Shown piece by piece: positions 25,894-56,036 of a stretch of DNA of 64,000 nt; the stretch's first letter is position 1, and the number at the start of each line of letters is the position of its first letter. Under the pieces are notes generated by a model. That model was not told where the DNA came from, searched no databases, and saw only the letters and a program-made list of their open reading frames with translations. The stretch is from NCBI GenBank assembly GCA_009392915.1, contig CP045477.1, forward strand, positions 416,001 to 480,000, given 5' to 3'. The translations under genes and the position numbers were made by a program. This stretch comes from Candidatus Forterrea multitransposorum CG_2015-17_Forterrea_25_41 (GTDB lineage: Archaea > Iainarchaeota > Iainarchaeia > Iainarchaeales > CSSED10-239).

Positions 25894-26544
25894 ATGACAG
25901 AAAATAGTTTTCCTTTAATAGGAGATAACTTACCAGAAATGAAAGTTCAAACAACCATGGGAGAAAAAAACTTACCAGTTGATTACAAAGGTAAATGGAT
26001 TGTTTTATTCAGTCATCCAGCAGACTTTACTCCTGTTTGTACAACAGAATTTTATTCTTTTGCAAAGAAAAAAGAAGAATTTGATAAAATAAATACAGAG
26101 CTTTTAGGTCTTTCAATGGATCAAGTTTTTTCACACATTAAATGGGCTGAATGGATAAAAGATAATTTAGATCAAGAAATAAATTTTCCAATAATTGCAG
26201 ATCACGGACAAATTGCAACTAAATTAGGTATGCTTCATCCAAGTAAAGGAACAAATACAGTTAGAGCAGTTTTTATAATTGACCCTAAAGGAATTATAAG
26301 ACTTATAATGTACTACCCACAAGAAATTGGAAGAAATGTAGATGAGATTATAAGAAGTATAAAAGCTTTACAATATGCAGATAAACATAATGTAGCAATG
26401 CCTGAAAACTGGCCAAACCACCCTTTATTAAAAGATAAAGTAATTGTTCCTCCTGCAAAAGATGTTCAAACTGCAGAAAAAAGAAAAGAAGAATATAAAG
26501 ATTCTTGCTATGACTGGTGGCTTTGCTATAAAGACATGGAATAG
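25894..26544 (+). CDS. Peroxiredoxin (AhpC/TSA family, Prx6-like).
   Basis: FTPVCTTE peroxidatic-Cys motif and overall Prx architecture. GGTGA RBS 6 nt upstream. Confidence 0.85.
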
Positions 26545-30761: not shown

Positions 30762-31040
30762 ATGACATATGAAGAAACATCAAAACTTTCTGAAAAAACA
30801 TTAAACCTTAGAAGAGCAATTGATTCTTTAAGAGAAGAGCTTGAAGCTGTTGACTATTACCAACAAAGAGCAGATGCAACAAATGACCCTGAACTTAAGA
30901 AAATCTTAGAACATAACAGAGATGAAGAAAAGGAACATGCAGCAATGCTTATTGAGTGGCTTAGAAGAAACGATTCTCGTTTTGAAAAAGAACTTAAAGA
31001 TTATCTTTTCACAGATAAAGAGATAGGACATCACGAATAG
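30762..31040 (+). CDS. EncFtn-type (encapsulated-ferritin-like) ferroxidase-domain protein, stand-alone and without an obvious C-terminal targeting peptide.
   Basis: REELEAVDYYQQRADATNDPELKKILEHNRDEEKEHAAMLIEWLRRND closely matches the EncFtn core (EELEAVDWY.QR.DA.TDPEL..IL.HNRDEEKEHAAM.LEWLRRND). Confidence 0.6.
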   Translation: MTYEETSKLSEKTLNLRRAIDSLREELEAVDYYQQRADATNDPELKKILEHNRDEEKEHAAMLIEWLRRNDSRFEKELKDYLFTDKEIGHHE

Positions 31041-40504: not shown

Positions 40505-40785
40505 TATTAAGTGTACAGGCACTTACTGGTCGAAAAACAGTTCAAGAAAACATTTAGCTTTATAAAATCTCAAGTCCGCAACCCAAAAAGCATCAAACAC
40601 TTAGGATACTGCTGCTTCCTTCCGGATCTGACAGGGTTTACTAAGATATTCGATCTTAATGGACGAACCGTCAGCAATTTTACAAAGAGTGCCTCCTTGC
40701 TTATTTGCCTTCCAGTAATAATCACTCCGGCTATGTAGATTTCCGGTAACAGGAGACTACAACCCCCCCAGCTAGCCTATACAAG
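40505..40785 (-). ncRNA. Signal recognition particle RNA (SRP/7S RNA).
   Basis: Reverse strand contains GUCAGAUCCGGAAGGAAGCAGC, the conserved helix-8 motif (cf. GGUCCGGAAGGAAGCAGCC). It is a GC-rich ~280-nt island in AT-rich DNA, with an oligo-T run at the 3' end. Ends are approximate. Confidence 0.6.
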
Positions 40786-40941
40786 TAATTAAAGTGACGA
40801 TACATTTAAAAACACTTTGGACAATATATATAACATAAAAATAATGTATTAATTCACTAAAAAACAAAAAAAGGTGTGTTAATACCTTATATACAAAAAA
40901 GAAGCTTAATTTAAGCTTATTTTAATAATGAGGTGGATTGG

Positions 40942-42054
40942 ATGAGATCAATTGTATCAAATGCAGTAGAGCACAAATCTGCAGCTGCTGAGAACATAAA
41001 CGTTAAAGACAGCGAATTTGCAGCCCCAAAGATCATGGTTATGGGAATTGGTGGTGCAGGAAATAATTCTGTAAATAGAATCTGTGCAATGGGTGTTGCA
41101 GGTGCACAACTTGTAGCTATTAACACAGATAGACAACACTTAGGTATCATTTCAGATGATATAACAAAATTATTAATTGGAAAATCAGTAACTAATGGTT
41201 TAGGTGCTGGTGCATACCCTGAAATAGGTGCAAAAGCAGCAGAAGTTTCAAAAGCAGCATTAGAAGAAATCTTAGATGGTGTTGACATGCTTTTCATTAC
41301 TGCCGGAATGGGTGGTGGAACAGGAACAGGTGCAGCTCCAGTAGTAGCTCAAATAGCAAAACAACAAGGTGCAATTGTAATGTGTATAGTAACTTATCCT
41401 TTCGCACTTGAAAGAGCACGTTTAATTAAAGCAGAAGAAGGAATTGACCTTTTAAAAGATATTTGTGACACAGTTGTTGTTATTGATAACAATAGACTTG
41501 TTGAATTAGTTCCAAACCTTCCAATGCAAGATGCTTTCAGAGTAGCTGATGAAGTAATTGCAAGAACAGTAAGAGGAATTACAGAAACAATTACTCAACC
41601 TTCATTAATCAACCTTGATTACGCAGACATAAGAACAGTAATGGGTGGTAAAGGATTATCAGTTATCGCTGTTGGTGAATCACAATCTGTTAACAAAGTT
41701 GAAGAAGTTGTTGAAGACACATTAAAGAATGCTCTTTTAGATGTTGATATAACTGGTGCAACAGGTTGTTTAATCCATATTACAGGTGGAACTGAATTAA
41801 CTTTAGGTGAAGCTAACGCTGTTGGTGAAATGTTAACTGACCAAACAGATTCAAATGCAGCTGTTATCTGGGGTGCAAGAATTGATCCTACTTTTGAGAA
41901 TAAAATAGAAGTAATTGCTATTTTCACAGGTGTAAAATCACCATTCATCAAAGGAAGTAAAATGTTTAGAGGAAAAGATTCACCACAAAGCTACAACGGA
42001 AGTGGCAAAGGTGGAAGATCTTACGATGACAACTATGGATTAGATGTTTTATAA
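40942..42054 (+). CDS. ftsZ: Cell division GTPase FtsZ.
   Basis: GIGGAGNN and GMGGGTGTGAAPVVA tubulin/FtsZ signatures. Start taken at the ATG (MRSIV...), 5 nt after the GAGGTGG RBS; the ORF track uses a GTG 9 nt upstream. Confidence 0.85.
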   Translation: MRSIVSNAVEHKSAAAENINVKDSEFAAPKIMVMGIGGAGNNSVNRICAMGVAGAQLVAINTDRQHLGIISDDITKLLIGKSVTNGLGAGAYPEIGAKAAEVSKAALEEILDGVDMLFITAGMGGGTGTGAAPVVAQIAKQQGAIVMCIVTYPFALERARLIKAEEGIDLLKDICDTVVVIDNNRLVELVPNLPMQDAFRVADEVIARTVRGITETITQPSLINLDYADIRTVMGGKGLSVIAVGESQSVNKVEEVVEDTLKNALLDVDITGATGCLIHITGGTELTLGEANAVGEMLTDQTDSNAAVIWGARIDPTFENKIEVIAIFTGVKSPFIKGSKMFRGKDSPQSYNGSGKGGRSYDDNYGLDVL

Positions 42055-44125: not shown

Positions 44126-44181
44126 TTTCTCTTTATTCTCTTTTCTTTTTTTTTCTTTCGTTTTACTTTTTTTTAAAAAAA

Positions 44182-44481
44182 CTATTCTTCAAAATAATAA
44201 TTATTATCATCTTCAAGCTTTATAGCTTTTCCATTTACTAAAGCAGAAGAAATCTTTTTTCTAGCATCAATTAAAAGTCTATGAAAAGTAGGTTGAGAAA
44301 TATTCATTCTTTCAGCACATTCTTTTTGCTCTAAACCTAAAAAATCTTTAAGCCTAATAGCTTCAATTTCAACAAAGCTTAATACTTCTTCTTCAATTTC
44401 TCTTAAAGGTATTCCAGCTGGTTTAAAATAATTAGAGGATGGTTTATGTGAAATATTTCTCATTCTTCTTTTTCTTGGCAT
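44182..44481 (-). CDS. DUF134 (UPF0251) family putative DNA-binding protein.
   Basis: MPRKRRMRN...YFKPAGIPLREIEEEVLSFVEIEAIRLKDFLGLEQKECAERMNISQPTF...ARKKISSALVNGKAI matches the DUF134 consensus. Confidence 0.7.
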   Translation of the reverse strand: MPRKRRMRNISHKPSSNYFKPAGIPLREIEEEVLSFVEIEAIRLKDFLGLEQKECAERMNISQPTFHRLLIDARKKISSALVNGKAIKLEDDNNYYFEE

Positions 44482-44500
44482 ATTTTAAAACCTTTTTTTC

Positions 44501-44836
44501 TTAATGTTTACAAGGAGTATTTAAATCTTTTAAATCAGCTATATTTTCAATTACTTCTTTTAAGAAATTATAATCTCCTGTTTTAAGAATAATATTTTTT
44601 TCTACAAATAAATCAATTGCTTTTTTACCCATACCTTTACTAAAAACTGTATCTATATTATTTTCTAAAATTTGATCTACTGGAGATTTAGAACTATTAT
44701 GATCTAAATAATTTTTAATAATTTTTAATTCTTTTAAAACTGTATCATATATTGCAAAAAAATTACAAGTTCCAAAATGATTGCTTAATTTTGAATCTAA
44801 ATTATTATTATCTTCTAATGAAATTAAAATTTTCAT
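44501..44836 (-). CDS. NifX/NifB-like dinitrogenase FeMo-cofactor-binding family (Nitro_FeMo-Co) protein.
   Basis: MKILISLED...LSNHFGTCNFFAIYD matches the HFG(R/H)APYF.I(V)D motif. Start taken at the second ATG, which is preceded by a GAGGA RBS. Confidence 0.55.
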   Translation of the reverse strand: MKILISLEDNNNLDSKLSNHFGTCNFFAIYDTVLKELKIIKNYLDHNSSKSPVDQILENNIDTVFSKGMGKKAIDLFVEKNIILKTGDYNFLKEVIENIADLKDLNTPCKH

Positions 44837-44932
44837 AAATAAATCCTCTAGTATCATTTAATATTTTTAAAATTAAATATTTAATGAATATATATAAATA
44901 TATAAAGAAAAGAAATAAAAGAACTACTCTTT

Positions 44933-45067
44933 TTAAAGAGTAGCTCTTCTTCTAAGACCCCTTCCTTTTGTTTGAGAAACACTTTCTCTTTCAGGATTGC
45001 ATCTTCCTCTTTTCATTCCAGTCATTGATCCTTTTCCATCAGGACCAGTTCCGTCTTTATTCGGCAT
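44933..45067 (-). CDS. DUF5320-like small Gly-rich protein (44 aa), not in the supplied ORF track.
   Basis: Translation MPNKDGTGPDGKGSMTGMKRGRCNPERESVSQTKGRGLRRRATL. The GPDGKG..TGRG..C pattern fits the family usually adjacent to DUF134 and NifX-like genes. Confidence 0.5.
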   Translation of the reverse strand: MPNKDGTGPDGKGSMTGMKRGRCNPERESVSQTKGRGLRRRATL

Positions 45068-45228
45068 ATTAAATTCCTCCTTTTCTTTTATGAATCTATA
45101 TTCATAATCATGTTACGAACAGTTTATAAAGCTATTGAATATATATTCATTTAAATAAAATACAAATATTTATAAAGATAATTAACAACATTAATTTATT
45201 AACAATAATAAATATAGGTGATATTAAT

Positions 45229-46158
45229 ATGGGATTATTTAAAAGAAAAACACCAGTTGTTCAAGAAAAAAAATCAGAATATGGACCAATTAACAGACTT
45301 GTAAGAAATGCTAAAGCAAAATCACAAGCAAAACAAAAAGCAAGAACACTAAAAGAAGTTGCAGAAATTAAATTTAATAAAATAAAAAGTGCTTTAAGAC
45401 TAAGACCTGCAAAAGTAAAAATAACTTATGAAGTTTTATCTAAAGAATATTCTTCTGCAGAAATTAAAAAAATAGATCAAAAACTTGCAATGCTTGAAAA
45501 AAGAGCAGAAGAAAGTCATAAAAGAATACTTGAACTTAAAGGTAAAACATTAAAAGATAATACAAATATCGAAGTTATTAATAGAAAAAAAATTGCACAA
45601 CAACTTCTTAAAGGAGAAGAAGTTAAAAGTATACCTAAAAGAAACGCAATTAATCCTGAAAGCTTAGAGGCAAATAAAGGAACAAAAGCATCTACTAAAA
45701 CCTTAAAAGAAATTGAAGCAGGAGATAAAAAAGTTTTAAAAACAAGAGAACTTGACAAACATTTTACTTCAGAAAAGAAAAGAGCAATGGTTTCAAAAGA
45801 AATAAGAAAAGAAATTGAGAATGCAAGATTAATAAATAAAGAAATTGCAAGTATTCAATCAATAAAATTTAATGACATTATAAAAAATCAACTAAAATCT
45901 TTTGGAACAATAGCAGAAACTAAACAAGCAAGAGAAGAAATTATTAAATCTCTTTACAATAAATATGAAAAAGGAGCAATTAATTTATCTGGTTTAAGAG
46001 ATTTAATTAAATATTTATCTGTTGAAGTTGAGATTGGTAAAAAAATGAATATTATAAATTCTGTTGAAAATGCAAACACTTATCTTTTAGGAAATGCTCA
46101 ACTTATAAATGAAATAAAAGATATTTCTGAAATAAAAAAGAAATTTAAGTTTTTTTAA
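45229..46158 (+). CDS. Hypothetical K-rich coiled-coil protein.
   Basis: A 309-aa ORF with strongly helical, charged composition. Confidence 0.35.
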   Translation: MGLFKRKTPVVQEKKSEYGPINRLVRNAKAKSQAKQKARTLKEVAEIKFNKIKSALRLRPAKVKITYEVLSKEYSSAEIKKIDQKLAMLEKRAEESHKRILELKGKTLKDNTNIEVINRKKIAQQLLKGEEVKSIPKRNAINPESLEANKGTKASTKTLKEIEAGDKKVLKTRELDKHFTSEKKRAMVSKEIRKEIENARLINKEIASIQSIKFNDIIKNQLKSFGTIAETKQAREEIIKSLYNKYEKGAINLSGLRDLIKYLSVEVEIGKKMNIINSVENANTYLLGNAQLINEIKDISEIKKKFKFF

Positions 46159-53533: not shown

Positions 53534-54280
53534 TTATGGAAGATTAGCTTTCATTGTTAGGAATATAAACATATCAATTATTGGAAATAAAATAACAATT
53601 ATAAAAATAACAGATAAAGGTGTAAAAGATAATTCTAAAAAATTACTACCAACTAATAAAAACATTAAAAACAAAGCAGGAACAATTGCAGAAACAACAA
53701 TATAGATTAAAGATAAAAGACTTAATTTAGTGGAATAATTTTTAATTAAATAATTTTGTTTTTCAATAATACTTGAAGATAATGTTCTTAAAGATTCAGA
53801 TTTATTTAAAGAACCAGTAGATAAAACATCTTCAATCTGATAAAAAACTCTCTTTAAATCTGAGTTTTCAACACCCACAGAAATAAAAGATTCAGAAAGA
53901 GAATAACCTAAGACATTTACTTTATATAAAACTTTTTTAATAATTTGCCCAATTAAAGAAGAATCAACTCTATTTTCTAAAGCAATTTTTAAAGAAATAT
54001 TCTTATCTAAATCATTTGCAAGGTTATTTAAGAAAAAAGGAATTTCTTTATTTATTTGTCTTTGATGATTTTGAAGCTTAATCTTGTATTTAAAAAAAAT
54101 AATAAAAAAGAACATAAAGAAAAACATAATAAATAAATTAAATAAATAACTATAAGATAAACTAATAACCACTGAATCAATTAATAAAAAAATAATTAAA
54201 ATTATTAAATAGAGAATAATAAATAACAAAAAGTTCTTTCTTGTAAATATTTCTTTCTTTAAAAAAATATAATCAATCAT
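53534..54280 (-). CDS. Type II/IV secretion-system F-domain membrane protein (TadB/FlaJ-like half).
   Basis: TM helices flank a T2SSF-like cytoplasmic domain (IGQIIKKVLYKV...). 8-nt overlap with the ATPase gene. Confidence 0.45.
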   Translation of the reverse strand: MIDYIFLKKEIFTRKNFLLFIILYLIILIIFLLIDSVVISLSYSYLFNLFIMFFFMFFFIIFFKYKIKLQNHQRQINKEIPFFLNNLANDLDKNISLKIALENRVDSSLIGQIIKKVLYKVNVLGYSLSESFISVGVENSDLKRVFYQIEDVLSTGSLNKSESLRTLSSSIIEKQNYLIKNYSTKLSLLSLIYIVVSAIVPALFLMFLLVGSNFLELSFTPLSVIFIIVILFPIIDMFIFLTMKANLP

Positions 54281-56036
54281 AATCTTTTCTAATTAATATT
54301 TCATCAATTATTTTTTCTTGTTTCTTATAAACTTTAAGATAATCTTTTTTATTTTTAATATCAAATGCAAATTTTAATTTATCATAGATTTTAATAGAAT
54401 CATTAACTTTAATTAATTTATTTTTATAAATATCAAAATAAAATAAAACATTTAAAGAAATTTTTCCATCTTTATATATAACTTCACAGATTTCAGTAAT
54501 ATTTCTTAAATCAATAGATTTACCTTTTAAATATTTATTATATCTTCTTTGAGTTATAATTAAATCAATTACACCTAAATCAGTTTCTAAAACACCATAT
54601 GACTTAAACCTTAATAGAGCTTCATTAGCACTTTGAGAATGGAAAGTTGTATATGTACCTTTTGCTTGACCACAAAGCATAGATTCAATTAAATATTTTG
54701 ATTCTTCTCTACTTCTAATTTCTCCAATAACAACTCTATCAGGTCTCATTCTTAAAGTGTTTATAACTAAACTTTCAAGATTAATTCCAATCTCAGGATT
54801 TACAAGTGTAAAAACTTTATGTTTATGAGGGATATTTATCTCTCTAACTTCTTCAACAACAACAAATCTTTCATCTAAAGGAACAAAAGAAAGTAAAGTG
54901 TTTAAAGTGGTTGTTTTTCCAGAACCAGTATTTCCAACAACAATTATATTTGAATCTGTTAAAAAACAAAGACTTAAAAAAACTAAAGCTTCTTTTGAAA
55001 CTGTATTAAAAGAGATTAAATCTTTAATTGTAAATGGTTTTTGAGAAAATTTTCTAATAGTAATACAAGCACTTTCAGTTATTGGGTTTATAACTGCATT
55101 AAGTCTTGAATTATCTTTAAGATAAGTATCTAAAATTGGATTTTTTAAAGTAATATATTTATTTGAGTGCCAAGAAAGTTTATTAATTAAATCCCTTATT
55201 ACTTGAGAAGAAGAATAAGAAAGATTACTTTCAAGCCAACCATAATATTTATGATAAACATAAAGTGATTTTCCTTCTCCAATAATTACAATTTCTTCAA
55301 GATAAGGATCTTTTAATATTTCTGTTAATGGTCCATAATTATAAAGATTATTAAAAGAAATATCTATAATATAATTAAATTGATCTTCTTCAAGCTCTAT
55401 GTTATTAACATAACAATAATCAATTAATTCTTTTTCAATATCTTCTTTTATTCTTTCAGTTGAAACTTTTTCAATATATTCTGTTCTAGTTTTATAAGAA
55501 TCTAAAATAAAGTTAATAACTTCAATTTCTTGGATTGAAAGATTTTGATGAAAAATTAAATATCTTTTAGAAGAATCTTTCATTTCAAATACATTTTTAG
55601 AAATATTTCTTAAGATTTCTTTTTTTAAATCTAAAACAACATAACCTAAATATCTATTAAGAATATATTTCTTTTCATCATCAGTAAACTCATCCATTAT
55701 CTTTAATAAAGCAGGATTATTTTTATAACAAAACATAGAAAAAGAACTTAAAGCACATAAATCACATTTATAAGCTTTATTTTTTCTTAAGATAATAGCA
55801 TTATGTGGACAAGCTTTAAGACACTCACCACACCCATCACATTTTTCAGAATCAATTGCTACAACGCCTTTAGAAACATAATAAATAGCATTTTTTTTAC
55901 AAGCTTTAATACAAGGAGCATCTTTACAATTGGTACAATTGAATACACAAGAAGAGTCTTTTTTTGTAAAATTGTAAGGACAATTTAGAAAAACATCTGT
56001 ATCTTTGATAAAATCTTCTGTTTTCTTAAGATACAT
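54273..56036 (-). CDS. FlaI/CpaF/VirB11-family secretion ATPase with an N-terminal 2[4Fe-4S] ferredoxin-like domain.
   Basis: N-terminus: CTNCKDAPCIKAC and CDGCGECLKACP (CxxCxxCxxxCP). C-terminal core: Walker A VVGNTGSGKTTTL, Asp box VVVEEVREI, Walker B RMRPDRVVIGEIRSREE. Confidence 0.75.
   Translation of the reverse strand: MYLKKTEDFIKDTDVFLNCPYNFTKKDSSCVFNCTNCKDAPCIKACKKNAIYYVSKGVVAIDSEKCDGCGECLKACPHNAIILRKNKAYKCDLCALSSFSMFCYKNNPALLKIMDEFTDDEKKYILNRYLGYVVLDLKKEILRNISKNVFEMKDSSKRYLIFHQNLSIQEIEVINFILDSYKTRTEYIEKVSTERIKEDIEKELIDYCYVNNIELEEDQFNYIIDISFNNLYNYGPLTEILKDPYLEEIVIIGEGKSLYVYHKYYGWLESNLSYSSSQVIRDLINKLSWHSNKYITLKNPILDTYLKDNSRLNAVINPITESACITIRKFSQKPFTIKDLISFNTVSKEALVFLSLCFLTDSNIIVVGNTGSGKTTTLNTLLSFVPLDERFVVVEEVREINIPHKHKVFTLVNPEIGINLESLVINTLRMRPDRVVIGEIRSREESKYLIESMLCGQAKGTYTTFHSQSANEALLRFKSYGVLETDLGVIDLIITQRRYNKYLKGKSIDLRNITEICEVIYKDGKISLNVLFYFDIYKNKLIKVNDSIKIYDKLKFAFDIKNKKDYLKVYKKQEKIIDEILIRKDYD

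Follow-up and report, generated by a model that had tools for sequence, protein, structure and literature searches.

Two conserved operators and a predicted autoregulated DUF134 module with NifX-fold and DUF5320 partners in an Iainarchaeota archaeon

In the 64-kb stretch of archaeal DNA analyzed here (hereafter the window), the DUF5320, NifX-like and DUF134 genes are preceded by regulatory DNA with two conserved operators 5′ of the DUF5320 gene, a feature that, like the DeoR homology and the domain fusions described below, goes beyond the initial annotation. Our preferred reading, to which we assign a probability of roughly 60%, is that the three genes of this Iainarchaeota (DPANN) archaeon form one autoregulated transcription-control module of the DeoR repressor type, with DUF134 on the operator, the NifX-fold protein as metal/Fe-S effector module and DUF5320 as third partner. 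DUF134 would be the DNA-binding subunit, sitting as a dimer on the palindrome (T)TATGAA-TATATA-TTCATA(A). Occupancy of the two operators, which bracket a TATA-like box (Table 1), would block the promoter and repress the operon transcript; we infer repression solely from where the operators lie. The NifX-fold protein would fill the place of the DeoR/SorC effector-binding domain, holding a metal or Fe-S-type cofactor via His20, His46, Cys109 and nearby residues, and would relay the metal, Fe-S or redox state to DUF134.

All three open reading frames were found as adjacent genes on the minus strand, as initially annotated, and a check by Pfam hmmscan upheld the three family assignments, each of which scored above its Pfam cut-off. 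DUF134 matched PF02001 (E 1.1e-22, 80.9 bits vs cut-off 27) with residues 3-90 aligned to profile positions 6-91 of 98, the NifX-like protein matched PF02579, Nitro_FeMo-Co (E 1.1e-12, 48.5 bits vs cut-off 26.3), and the 44-aa protein matched PF17253, DUF5320 (E 3.9e-8, 34.8 bits vs cut-off 27). The description of DUF134 as sigma-70 region-4-like agrees with a Sigma70_r4_2 match that was likewise above cut-off (26.8 vs 25.7); the NCBIfam equivalog PRK04217 stayed below its cut-off (61.4 vs 115). The 44-aa gene had been reported as missed by the open reading frame track, which happened solely through the length threshold, and it appears once frames of at least 30 aa are listed. For the NifX-like gene, the second ATG (44836) is most likely the start rather than the one upstream, because all 14 homologues begin with MKILI or MNILI and GAGGA sits 8 nt 5′ of it.

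Table 1. Genes and predicted regulatory features of the module (positions in the window)
Feature	Position	Strand	Remarks
T7 run	44175..44181	-	directly after DUF134 stop codon; from sequence
DUF134 gene	44182..44481	-	99 aa; stand-alone DeoR/SorC-type, sigma-4-like HTH, predicted DNA binder
NifX-like gene (Nitro_FeMo-Co, COG1433/ORP-type)	44501..44836	-	111 aa; other upstream ATG at 44857
Hairpin, 15 bp	44917..44950	-	DUF5320 stop codon in loop, then T-rich tract; terminator-like scan
DUF5320 gene, short form	44933..45067	-	44 aa; PF17253, 60-homologue alignment, JGI gene call
Shine-Dalgarno GGAGG of DUF5320 gene	45076..45080	-	from sequence
Proximal operator	45088..45107		perfect 20-bp palindrome TTATGAAT-CTAT-ATTCATAA; core TGAATNNNNATTCA at 45091-45104
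TATA-box-like element TTTATAAA	45123..45130	-	between operators; predicted archaeal operon promoter, function inferred
Distal operator	45135..45150		TTGAATATATATTCAT; core 45136-45149; 5′ of TATA-like box

The module was compared across 80 related loci (764 kb), which are the best matches to the window DUF134 protein and hence skewed towards relatives within DPANN; we made the gene calls and two of the three HMMs for neighbouring genes ourselves, with Pfam checks on samples and tallies. The initial annotation had proposed a conserved archaeal trio, but the co-occurrence counts supported only the pair of DUF5320 and DUF134, and not the trio, as the conserved unit. In 54/56 archaeal species-level loci, DUF5320 and DUF134 share a strand with DUF5320 located 5′, an adjacency far beyond chance, and DUF5320 is an almost obligatory partner of DUF134 in archaea. 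The conserved core consists of DUF5320, then zero to three genes, then DUF134. In contrast, a NifX-like gene was found within 3.5 kb at varying positions in only about 29% (19/65) of archaeal loci and in 5/14 bacterial loci. The families are also not confined to archaea, but occur in Clostridia, Deltaproteobacteria and Chloroflexota, where they are often accompanied by MinD-ferredoxin ATPases and an MrpORP-like protein as in orp-type clusters, which were reportedly defined by Fievet et al. 2011. Other cargo of the module outside the window comprises ZIP, CDF, EncFtn, peroxiredoxin, DsbD-like, thioredoxin and MinD-ferredoxin proteins. Among 150 diverse DUF134 representatives, 20 were fused to Nitro_FeMo-Co, three to DUF5320 and four to Zn ribbons, and examples were confirmed one by one; in the DUF134::NifX fusions (13% of representatives) the HTH comes first, followed by the NifX domain.

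The AF2 model of the NifX-like protein (pLDDT 90.7) shows the stand-alone COG1433/ORP group, rather than NifX or NafY, to be nearest in fold, with TM1816, PH0822, TM1290 and the D. gigas orange protein (TM 0.81) as best Foldseek matches (E 5e-8 and TM 0.78-0.81 for TM1816 and PH0822). Fold and size are shared with the stand-alone COG1433 proteins (TM1816, TM1290, PH0822, MJ0327, MTH1175; Foldseek E 5e-8 to 3e-5, TM 0.73-0.81), and to our knowledge such stand-alone NifX-fold proteins have remained orphans of structural genomics for 25 years. The window protein differs from them in belonging to a DPANN subfamily in which His20, His46 and Cys109 are invariant (14 homologues aligned) and in its context: each subfamily member looked up (3/3) is embedded in a DUF5320/DUF134 module. 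H20, C24, H46, C109 and H111 are candidate metal/Fe-S ligands, and judging by these residues the ligand of the protein is probably a metal or Fe-S-type cofactor. Its HFG-T-C (residues 20-24) and C-K-H (109-111) are similar to CxHFGHCE and CDH in the [3Fe-4S]-binding Di-Nase domain of MrpORP (PMC6345978). Thr is found in the window protein where the subfamily has His23, and Ser replaces the first Cys of the MrpORP CxHFGHC motif. The module had been annotated as functionally undescribed. This holds for DUF134 and DUF5320, for which no functional description was found in the searchable literature, where they are mentioned incidentally in an RG-motif list (PMC7565180) and as a transposon hit in Tsac_2480 (PMC5886521). 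The NifX-like branch, however, has characterized relatives in the Desulfovibrio ORP complex and MrpORP (PMC6345978, PMC8359166).

These relatives raise the alternative that the NifX-like protein could be the regulated product instead of the sensor. The window would then encode a minimal ORP-type metalloprotein system, in which the NifX-like protein, perhaps with DUF5320, is a component for Fe-S/metal-cluster handling or cell division and DUF134 is its local regulator. The ORP complex is described as anaerobe-specific with a putative tie to cell division (PMC6345978, PMC8359166), and the D. vulgaris system comprises Orp3/4/5/8/9 and MrpORP under the control of sigma-54/OrpR (PMC6345978, PMC8359166, PMC3897727). 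Besides the very close match to the D. gigas orange protein, both systems share PF02579 (Di-Nase/ORP-fold) proteins, specificity to anaerobes and the Cys/His motif pair HFGHC ... C-x-H of the [3Fe-4S]-binding Di-Nase domain. In bacterial loci, MinD-ferredoxin ATPases and Mrp::Di-Nase fusions accompany the DUF134, DUF5320 and NifX-like genes; both are also present in some archaeal relatives. However, phmmer searches of the 64-kb window with representatives from related loci found no MinD-ferredoxin ATPase (Orp3/4-type), no Mrp (Orp9-type Mrp::Di-Nase) and no second NifX-like gene, and the regulator would be DUF134 rather than OrpR/sigma-54. The low share of archaeal modules with a NifX-like gene also speaks against this alternative, as does the HTH-then-NifX order of the fusions, which is the architecture of a one-component regulator and not of a regulator plus target. 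The presence of FtsZ near the module would fit a cell-division role, but this link was set aside, as the adjacency concerns about 3/82 loci with no clear excess over chance. Overall, we consider an ORP-type system unlikely, if still worth serious attention, and partly compatible with an autoregulated repressor module.

FtsZ is encoded two genes from the module in the window, adjoins it in locus L085 and is near it in L036.

Coming back to the repressor module, the proximal operator is located 21-40 bp 5′ of the DUF5320 ATG, overlaps the predicted transcription start and is the sole exact match in the 64 kb. Only two matches to TGAATNNNNATTCA occur in the window (0.42 expected in 64 kb), and both fall in the 161-nt region 5′ of DUF5320; the centres of the distal and proximal operators are 45 bp apart. 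In the promoter alignment, the proximal operator is conserved, the distal one is conserved in L083, L085 and L004, and the TATA-like element is kept as TTTA(T/A)AAA in a four-way comparison. The order operator, TATA, operator and Shine-Dalgarno sequence is kept in four relatives, the intergenic DNA of which has otherwise diverged. Scans with a PWM and with mismatches allowed revealed no convincing operator 5′ of the NifX-like gene, of DUF134 or of the EncFtn-like (30762-31040) and peroxiredoxin (25894-26544) genes of the window, which speaks against the module model. The sole candidate, a 2-mismatch half-site at 44885-44898, is indistinguishable from the AT-rich background. Scanning the window for sigma-70 promoters gave 10 matches vs 9.9 expected, with a bacterial consensus that is uninformative for an archaeon.

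Across the 80 loci, the core ATGAATNNNNATTCAT of the consensus palindrome was found 65 times, compared to 0.38 expected occurrences. Most of these sites (52/65) lie within 150 nt 5′ of DUF5320 or DUF134, a region that makes up 2.9% of the sequence. The genes behind the sites are DUF5320 (about 40-49), DUF134 (10), DUF134::NifX fusions (3-4), EncFtn (2-3) and Prx (1), and 9/10 of the sites preceding DUF134 end 0-4 nt from the ATG. The palindrome is also present in Deltaproteobacteria loci (L034, L076, L082) and is therefore more than an archaeal TATA box. These loci have just one DNA-binding protein in common, DUF134, which on the strength of these sequence comparisons most likely binds the palindrome as a dimer.

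The recognition helix and the operator change together. Every locus with a TATATA-centred site encodes SQPTFHR, and those SRPTF proteins with an identified palindrome all have a CATATG-centred one (5/5; L040, L057, L089, L091, L092). The Gln/Arg switch at the position equivalent to DeoR R34 thus covaries with an operator change between T:A and C:G, with n=5 Arg-type operators only, and seven other Arg-type loci from Clostridia showed no clear palindrome. The base pair that switches falls on the base contacted by DeoR R34 in our own alignment of operator sequences, which maps the covarying base to DeoR T12/C7.

This likeness to DeoR extends to the protein. The HTH of DUF134 is homologous to the DNA-binding domain of Bacillus subtilis DeoR and represents a DeoR-type N-terminal HTH. 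The window protein carries the N-terminal MPRxR...Y-F-K-P-x-G and the HTH motif ISQPTFxR, with N-I-S62-Q63-P-T-F-H-R68 as recognition helix, and has all residues that are invariant across 112 DUF134 sequences (F19, K20, P21, G23, S62, P64, T65, R68). DeoR and DUF134 share the helix pattern NIS-R/Q-PT-x-x-R-LL, in which R34 corresponds to the covarying Q63 and R39 to the invariant R68. In DeoR these two arginines contact bases, as seen in a DeoR-OL18 structure at 3.7 Å, about the base contacts of which the authors are cautious (PMC11229326). The DeoR operator ATTGAA-CAAAAT-TTCAAT (PMC11229326; PDB 7bhy, 8r7y) has the same TGAA-N6-TTCA geometry, with ATTGAA-N6-TTCAAT for DeoR and (A/T)TGAA-TATATA-TTCA(T/A) at the DUF134 loci, and both systems have two operator halves around the promoter. 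DUF134 differs in its own conserved N-terminal MPRPR...FKPxG segment and a small beta-sheet, in its partners (a NifX-fold protein, DUF5320 or Zn ribbons, separate or fused) and in being present in archaea as well as bacteria. The SorC sugar-phosphate effector-binding domain of DeoR is absent: Pfam detected neither this nor any further domain in the 99-aa protein, which therefore falls outside the SorC family. Its mode of DNA binding is nevertheless probably the same.

It could be argued that the palindrome is bound by another factor or acts as a hairpin in the 5′-leader RNA, with DUF134 serving a non-transcriptional role. DNA binding by DUF134 is a prediction, the TATATA centre does resemble an archaeal TATA box, and several sites directly adjoin the start codon of DUF134, where co-transcription of the genes would carry them into the RNA. 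However, the motif tracks DUF134 in archaea and bacteria, including bacteria without TATA-box promoters, its sequence covaries with the Gln/Arg switch in the recognition helix, and the operator geometry equals that of the homologous DeoR domain. A function as RNA was rejected, as the RNA forms only a weak hairpin (-5 kcal/mol, z -0.9), with the Shine-Dalgarno sequence and ATG left free. We therefore regard this explanation as improbable.

A regulator of the repressor type is also favoured over a sigma factor. Only region-4 models matched DUF134 (residues 38-81), with no match to sigma region 2, and it therefore cannot be a sigma factor; archaea have no sigma factors. Small, often zinc- or thiol-based anti-sigma partners are known for ECF sigma region 4, and small anti-sigma proteins grip sigma-4 domains. 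The module resembles such ECF sigma/anti-sigma pairs in its small co-encoded partner with conserved Cys and in the predicted autoregulation of the gene pair, and differs in the missing region 2, the archaeal host and the dyad-symmetric operator. The comparison, which is an analogy only, suggests DUF5320 as a small modulator.

The 44-aa DUF5320 protein contains an MPxxDGTGPxGxGxxTGxxxGxC motif and a basic tail without coiled coil. It falls short of the full-length architecture, in which the N-terminal Gly-rich Cys motif is followed by RG/GFGRG repeats and, at the C-terminus, by an amphipathic coiled coil. Short forms without the helix were found in the window and in L004, L035, L051, L083 and L085 (60-homologue alignment). 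One might suspect that such a short, low-complexity frame, which matches only profile positions 1-39 of 99 through its Gly-rich N-terminal motif, is no real gene and that the triad is an annotation artefact; a homologue search with the 44-aa query returned three matches only, owing to its shortness. We nevertheless conclude that the gene is real, because it has a GGAGG Shine-Dalgarno sequence, conserved orthologues of 44-53 aa in relatives, which share the C-terminal GLRRRAT, and the conserved operator pair in front of it. The score above the Pfam cut-off, the most frequent position of the gene directly behind the conserved operator and the existence of natural DUF134::DUF5320 fusions likewise render an artefact very improbable. 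The JGI gene caller also calls the 44-aa gene on an identical 663-kb contig.

Finally, a leftover or part of the pathway for nitrogenase cofactors (NifX, NifB, NafY), as the Pfam family name and a weak structural similarity to NifX and NafY (Foldseek E ~1e-3) might suggest, can practically be dismissed for a single-domain protein of 111 aa without radical-SAM domain that scores 17.8 vs a cut-off of 112 for the NifX equivalog TIGR02663, has stand-alone COG1433 proteins of non-diazotrophs as nearest structures and is encoded in a regulator module with no nif genes seen in the window or related loci, in agreement with the initial annotation, which had described the organism as one that does not fix nitrogen.

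DUF134 is a large (3282 cluster representatives) and very strongly conserved family without assigned function, with about 55-65% identity between DPANN archaea and Clostridia. The autoregulated repressor model would replace “three DUFs in a row” by a concrete proposal that is cheap to test, with a DNA site and base-level predictions, including a Gln-to-Arg specificity swap, and with DUF134 as binder, the NifX-fold protein as effector module and a metal or Fe-S cluster as ligand class. Few regulators are recognisable in DPANN archaea, and the module would, if the model is true, be among their first defined transcription-factor/operator pairs and would give the puzzling ORP gene clusters of anaerobes a regulator. 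Taking the evidence jointly, the module may represent a previously unrecognised split, sometimes fused, one-component regulator of archaea and anaerobic bacteria, with a DeoR-type HTH on a near-invariant TGAA-N6-TTCA operator, a nitrogenase-cofactor-carrier fold as recruited sensor of Fe-S or metal-sulfur clusters or redox state, and a Gly/Arg-rich anti-sigma-like modulator. We put forward this wider reading tentatively, as a possibility with somewhat less than even odds. It would imply a major switch of metal/redox homeostasis in DPANN archaea and many strict anaerobes, and, outside Desulfovibrio, the so far missing regulator of orp-type clusters.

Two further elements concern the extent of the transcription unit. 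The 15-bp hairpin at the 3′ end of DUF5320 has a folding energy of -18.8 kcal/mol (z -3.2 by RNA fold); it may attenuate or partly terminate transcription between DUF5320 and the NifX-like gene and could split the transcription units. Oligo-T stretches are a termination signal for archaeal RNA polymerase, and the T7 run following DUF134 is likely the terminator of the unit.

The three adjacent minus-strand genes described in the initial annotation were found head to tail in the AT-rich window (24.5% G+C), with a convergent ThrRS gene on one side and, on the other, a divergent gene for a 309-aa orphan protein. Their assignment to the DUF134, NifX-like and DUF5320 families held in HMM searches, with all three above the Pfam curated cut-offs (PF02001, 80.9 bits; PF02579, 48.5 bits; PF17253, 34.8 bits). 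The DUF134 protein shares 97% identity with one from a 'Candidatus ainarchaeum sp.' MAG, which assigns the window to the Iainarchaeota (DPANN). For the NifX-like gene, the start should be placed at 44836, since all homologues begin with MKILI and GAGGA precedes this ATG. The DUF5320 gene, which was also called by the JGI pipeline on a 663-kb contig with the identical region, matches positions 1-39 of 99 of the PF17253 profile only. Family members share a remarkably well conserved N-terminus, MPxxDGTGPxGxGPxTGRGxGxC, after which come GFGRG repeats and, as a rule, an amphipathic helix; the window protein retains the motif and a basic tail only and is a short form without the usual coiled coil.

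Features of the DUF5320/NifX-like/DUF134 module and structural RNA genes, in window coordinates
Feature	Position	Strand	Remark
Promoter and predicted operators	45088-45150		followed by DUF5320
Distal palindrome core	45136-45149		TGAATNNNNATTCA match
TATA-like TTTATAAA	45123-45130		between the two palindromes
Proximal palindrome core	45091-45104		TGAATNNNNATTCA match
GGAGG (SD)	45076-45080		before DUF5320 ATG at 45067
DUF5320 gene	44933-45067	-	44 aa
15-bp hairpin	44917-44950		stop codon in loop, T-rich tail; after DUF5320, before NifX-like
NifX-like gene	44501-44857 or 44501-44836	-	alternative starts
DUF134 gene	44182-44481	-	99 aa
T7 run	44175-44181		after DUF134, end of predicted unit
Archaeal SRP RNA	40512-40783	-	Rfam RF01857, 118 bits; confirms that the window is of archaeal origin
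tRNA-Tyr	22321
tRNA-Leu	46775
tRNA-Ser	49092
tRNA-Asp	51986

One genome per GTDB species was scanned with a degenerate pattern, which placed DUF134 relatives in at least 582 species, and the best 80 loci (mostly DPANN, with Methanosarcinales, Thermoplasmatota, Clostridia/Bacillota, Deltaproteobacteria and Chloroflexota) were analyzed with our own ORF calls and iterated HMMs, including a Pfam check on cluster representatives and tallies. Within these 80, DUF5320 precedes a same-strand DUF134 gene in 54 of the 56 archaeal loci with enough upstream sequence, separated by zero to three genes, and a NifX-like gene occurs within 3.5 kb, on either side of DUF134, in 19/65 archaeal and 5/14 bacterial loci. 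The exact order of the window was seen again in another Iainarchaeota genome (L083) and, with an inserted split permease, at five other loci (L025, L043, L046, L052, L085). The co-occurrence counts thus uphold the DUF5320-DUF134 pair but not a NifX-like gene as its constant neighbour: the families of the proposed archaeal trio are widely found together, but the trio represents one arrangement of a DUF5320/DUF134 module whose range extends beyond archaea, as the same families also cluster in bacterial loci.

An inverted-repeat search upstream of the DUF5320 genes returned a recurring motif, GTT-ATGAAT-ATAT-ATTCAT-AAC. Its core ATGAATNNNNATTCAT has 65 exact copies in the 80 loci (764 kb), spread over 52 of them, while first-order Markov simulations gave an expectation of 0.38 and a maximum of 2. 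The 150-nt stretches ahead of DUF5320 and DUF134 genes make up 2.9% of the sequence and hold 52 of the 65 copies; those left over mostly stand before EncFtn, peroxiredoxin or another module gene, and at others the ORF start had been called too far upstream. In many loci, a second copy abuts the DUF134 start codon, 9/10 such sites ending 0-4 nt before the ATG and seven of these exactly 1 nt before it. The palindrome also precedes DUF134::NifX fusion genes in Deltaproteobacteria (L034, L076, L082), which argues against a mere archaeal TATA element, and as RNA it forms a weak hairpin that leaves SD and ATG uncovered.

In the 64-kb window, TGAATNNNNATTCA occurs exactly twice (0.42 expected), both times inside the 161-nt region upstream of DUF5320, and the order of distal site, TATA-like box, proximal site and SD is kept in L083, L085 and L004, where the remaining intergenic DNA has diverged. 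The proximal site would coincide with the expected archaeal transcript start, ~25-29 nt downstream of the TATA centre; an operator over the transcript start is the typical placement for archaeal repressors. Operator pairs show two spacings, ~22-25 bp with adjacent dyads (L006, L024, L029, L053, L074) and 44-54 bp flanking a TATA-like box, as in the window's clade (window, L004, L083, L085), which suggests higher-order, possibly tetramer-like binding as in DeoR. No description of this palindrome was found in the searchable literature.

DUF134, the sole DNA-binding protein common to these loci, is most likely the protein that would bind the palindrome, mainly because of covariation and of homology to a solved protein-operator complex. 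In its AF2 model (pLDDT 89), three helices form an HTH that packs against a small sheet made up of the conserved strands at both termini. When 112 DUF134 sequences were run as a profile against the whole PDB, the single match was the DeoR DNA-binding domain of Bacillus subtilis (7bhy/8r7y, E 6.4e-6; lEAirLkd..QeeaAkkmniSqPTfhRll in DUF134 against IEAARLYY..QQQIAEQLNISRPTVSRLL in DeoR), and NCBIfam gives a weak DeoR match for the window protein. The DeoR left operator, ATTGAA-CAAAAT-TTCAAT (PMC11229326), and the DUF134-associated palindrome have the dyad TGAA-N6-TTCA in common, and the arms TTGAA...TTCAA are found literally in the window distal site and in the L083 and L085 sites. In the DeoR-DNA structures, on which the authors are cautious (3.7 Å), R39 touches G4/T14 and R34 touches T12 (PMC11229326); via the chain-to-residue offset, these residues would correspond to the invariant Arg68 and to Gln63 of DUF134.

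Position 63 splits the family, with 63/150 representatives carrying SQPT (Gln-type) and 45/150 SRPT (Arg-type). Every locus with a TATATA-centred palindrome encodes SQPTFHR, and five Arg-type genes have perfect CATATG-centred palindromes directly upstream (L040, ATGGACATATGTCCAT; L057, ATTGACATATGTCAAT; L089, ATGAGCATATGCTCAT; L091, ATGAACATATGTTCAT; L092, ATGGACATATGTCCAa). These five are the only Arg-type operators found, seven Arg-type Clostridia loci showing no clear palindrome, and ATGnnCATATGnnCAT is absent from ~730 kb of Gln-type loci. The switching base pair is T:A with Gln and C:G with Arg; Gln-adenine and Arg-guanine are the textbook pairings. In our operator alignment, it would fall on the C7/T12 position of OL18, the base touched by R34.

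Pfam analysis of 150 diverse DUF134 representatives, out of 3282 at E ≤1e-3, revealed fusions to Nitro_FeMo-Co (20), DUF5320 (3), Zn_ribbon_8 (4) and HypA-like Zn sites (3). At the sequence level, the fusions verified in L034 (DUF134 3-95, PF02579 146-236) and L087 (DUF134 2-96, DUF5320 109-166) tie the three families physically. One-component regulators typically have their HTH at the N-terminus and a ligand-binding domain at the C-terminus; exactly this layout is found in DeoR/SorC, whose C-terminal domain binds the effector. Since the fusions share this layout, the NifX-fold protein would be the effector module of DUF134, encoded in the window as its own gene. DUF5320 is near-obligatory in archaea, lies directly behind the operator and is occasionally fused to DUF134, which suggests a partner or modulator rather than ordinary cargo. 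Long-form DUF134 proteins (150-215 aa; A1/A3 alignments, L057 5941-6528, L043, L047, L025) continue through a Gly/Arg-rich linker into a zinc-ribbon tail with four Cys (CxCPxCG...CPxCG), which may be an alternative built-in metal/redox sensor; some bacteria encode this ribbon separately, in a 75-88-aa gene adjoining DUF134.

The NifX-like model (pLDDT 90.7) is nearest to stand-alone COG1433 proteins and the Desulfovibrio gigas orange protein and matches NifX and NafY weakly; the module is unrelated to nitrogen fixation. His20 (HFG), His46 and Cys109 (C-terminal C-x-H) are invariant in the DPANN subfamily. In the MrpORP Di-Nase domain, CxHFGHCE ... CDH was proposed to hold a [3Fe-4S] cluster (Pardoux et al., PMC6345978); the NifX-like protein has the same motif pair, with Ser for the first Cys. 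Variable cargo genes within or just after the DUF5320-DUF134 bracket comprise Nitro_FeMo-Co proteins (16/118), ArsP_1-type permease halves (10), ZIP transporters (7), EncFtn-like ferritins (6), DsbD-like membrane proteins (5-6 by Pfam, 23 loci by clustering), MinD/ParA ATPases with ferredoxin inserts (5) and thioredoxins (4), besides a CDF transporter, peroxiredoxin and DUF123. The ZIP, CDF, EncFtn, peroxiredoxin, DsbD/thioredoxin and Fe-S ATPase cargo elsewhere, together with the motif pair, suggests metal, Fe-S or redox status as the signal.

The split ArsP_1-type permease (~140 + ~170 aa genes) is repeatedly found in the module, accompanied by one or two NifX-like genes (L085 2728-3976; L087 2068-4348, with an additional ArsA/ParA-like ATPase and ArsP_2 permease; L025, L043, L046, L052), which hints at transport of metal/metalloid species tied to NifX-fold proteins. 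In other DPANN genomes, EncFtn and peroxiredoxin families lie inside the module behind their own operator copies; the window genes for an EncFtn-like ferritin (30762-31040, +) and a 1-Cys peroxiredoxin (25894-26544, +) are unlinked to the module, and neither has an operator that could be recognised.

In the window, neither the NifX-like gene nor the DUF134 gene has an operator in front of it, so either one transcript covers all three genes and is attenuated after DUF5320, or NifX-like and DUF134, 19 nt apart, have their own unregulated promoter. The hairpin after DUF5320 has -18.8 kcal/mol (z -3.2). Overall, the module most likely behaves like a DeoR/SorC-type autoregulated repressor, but, as it lacks the effector domain of SorC, it falls outside that family. 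This model is specific and directly testable; as initially noted, no function was found for DUF134 or DUF5320 in the searchable literature. In Deltaproteobacteria and other bacteria, orp-like clusters hold DUF134 or a DUF134::NifX fusion and DUF5320, together with a small Zn-ribbon-like protein, one or two MinD-ferredoxin ATPases and an MrpORP-like protein. The ORP clusters of sulfate reducers are related but not the same, being regulated by OrpR/sigma-54, and neither a MinD-ferredoxin ATPase nor Mrp was found in the 64-kb window.

The FtsZ gene (40933-42054, +) lies two genes from the module; FtsZ is directly beside it in L085/L086 (L085 600-1703) and within 3.5 kb in L036, a co-localisation (~3/82 loci) not clearly beyond chance. 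The Desulfovibrio ORP complex has been tentatively tied to cell division (PMC6345978, PMC8359166). The 309-aa Lys/Glu-rich ORF (45229-46158, +), found in this species only and without a Pfam match, is divergent from the DUF5320 promoter region and, with its ATG 79 nt downstream of the distal operator, might be co-regulated with the module. A T2SSE-family (PF00437) type II/IV secretion ATPase (587 aa, 54273-56036, -) carries N-terminal 4Fe-4S ferredoxin domains in the JGI Pfam record of the identical contig, an unusual fusion for a pilus/archaellum-type ATPase. In L083 (4703-6124; GCA_028700115.1, Iainarchaeota), a RuBisCO large-subunit gene directly follows the triad on the same strand.
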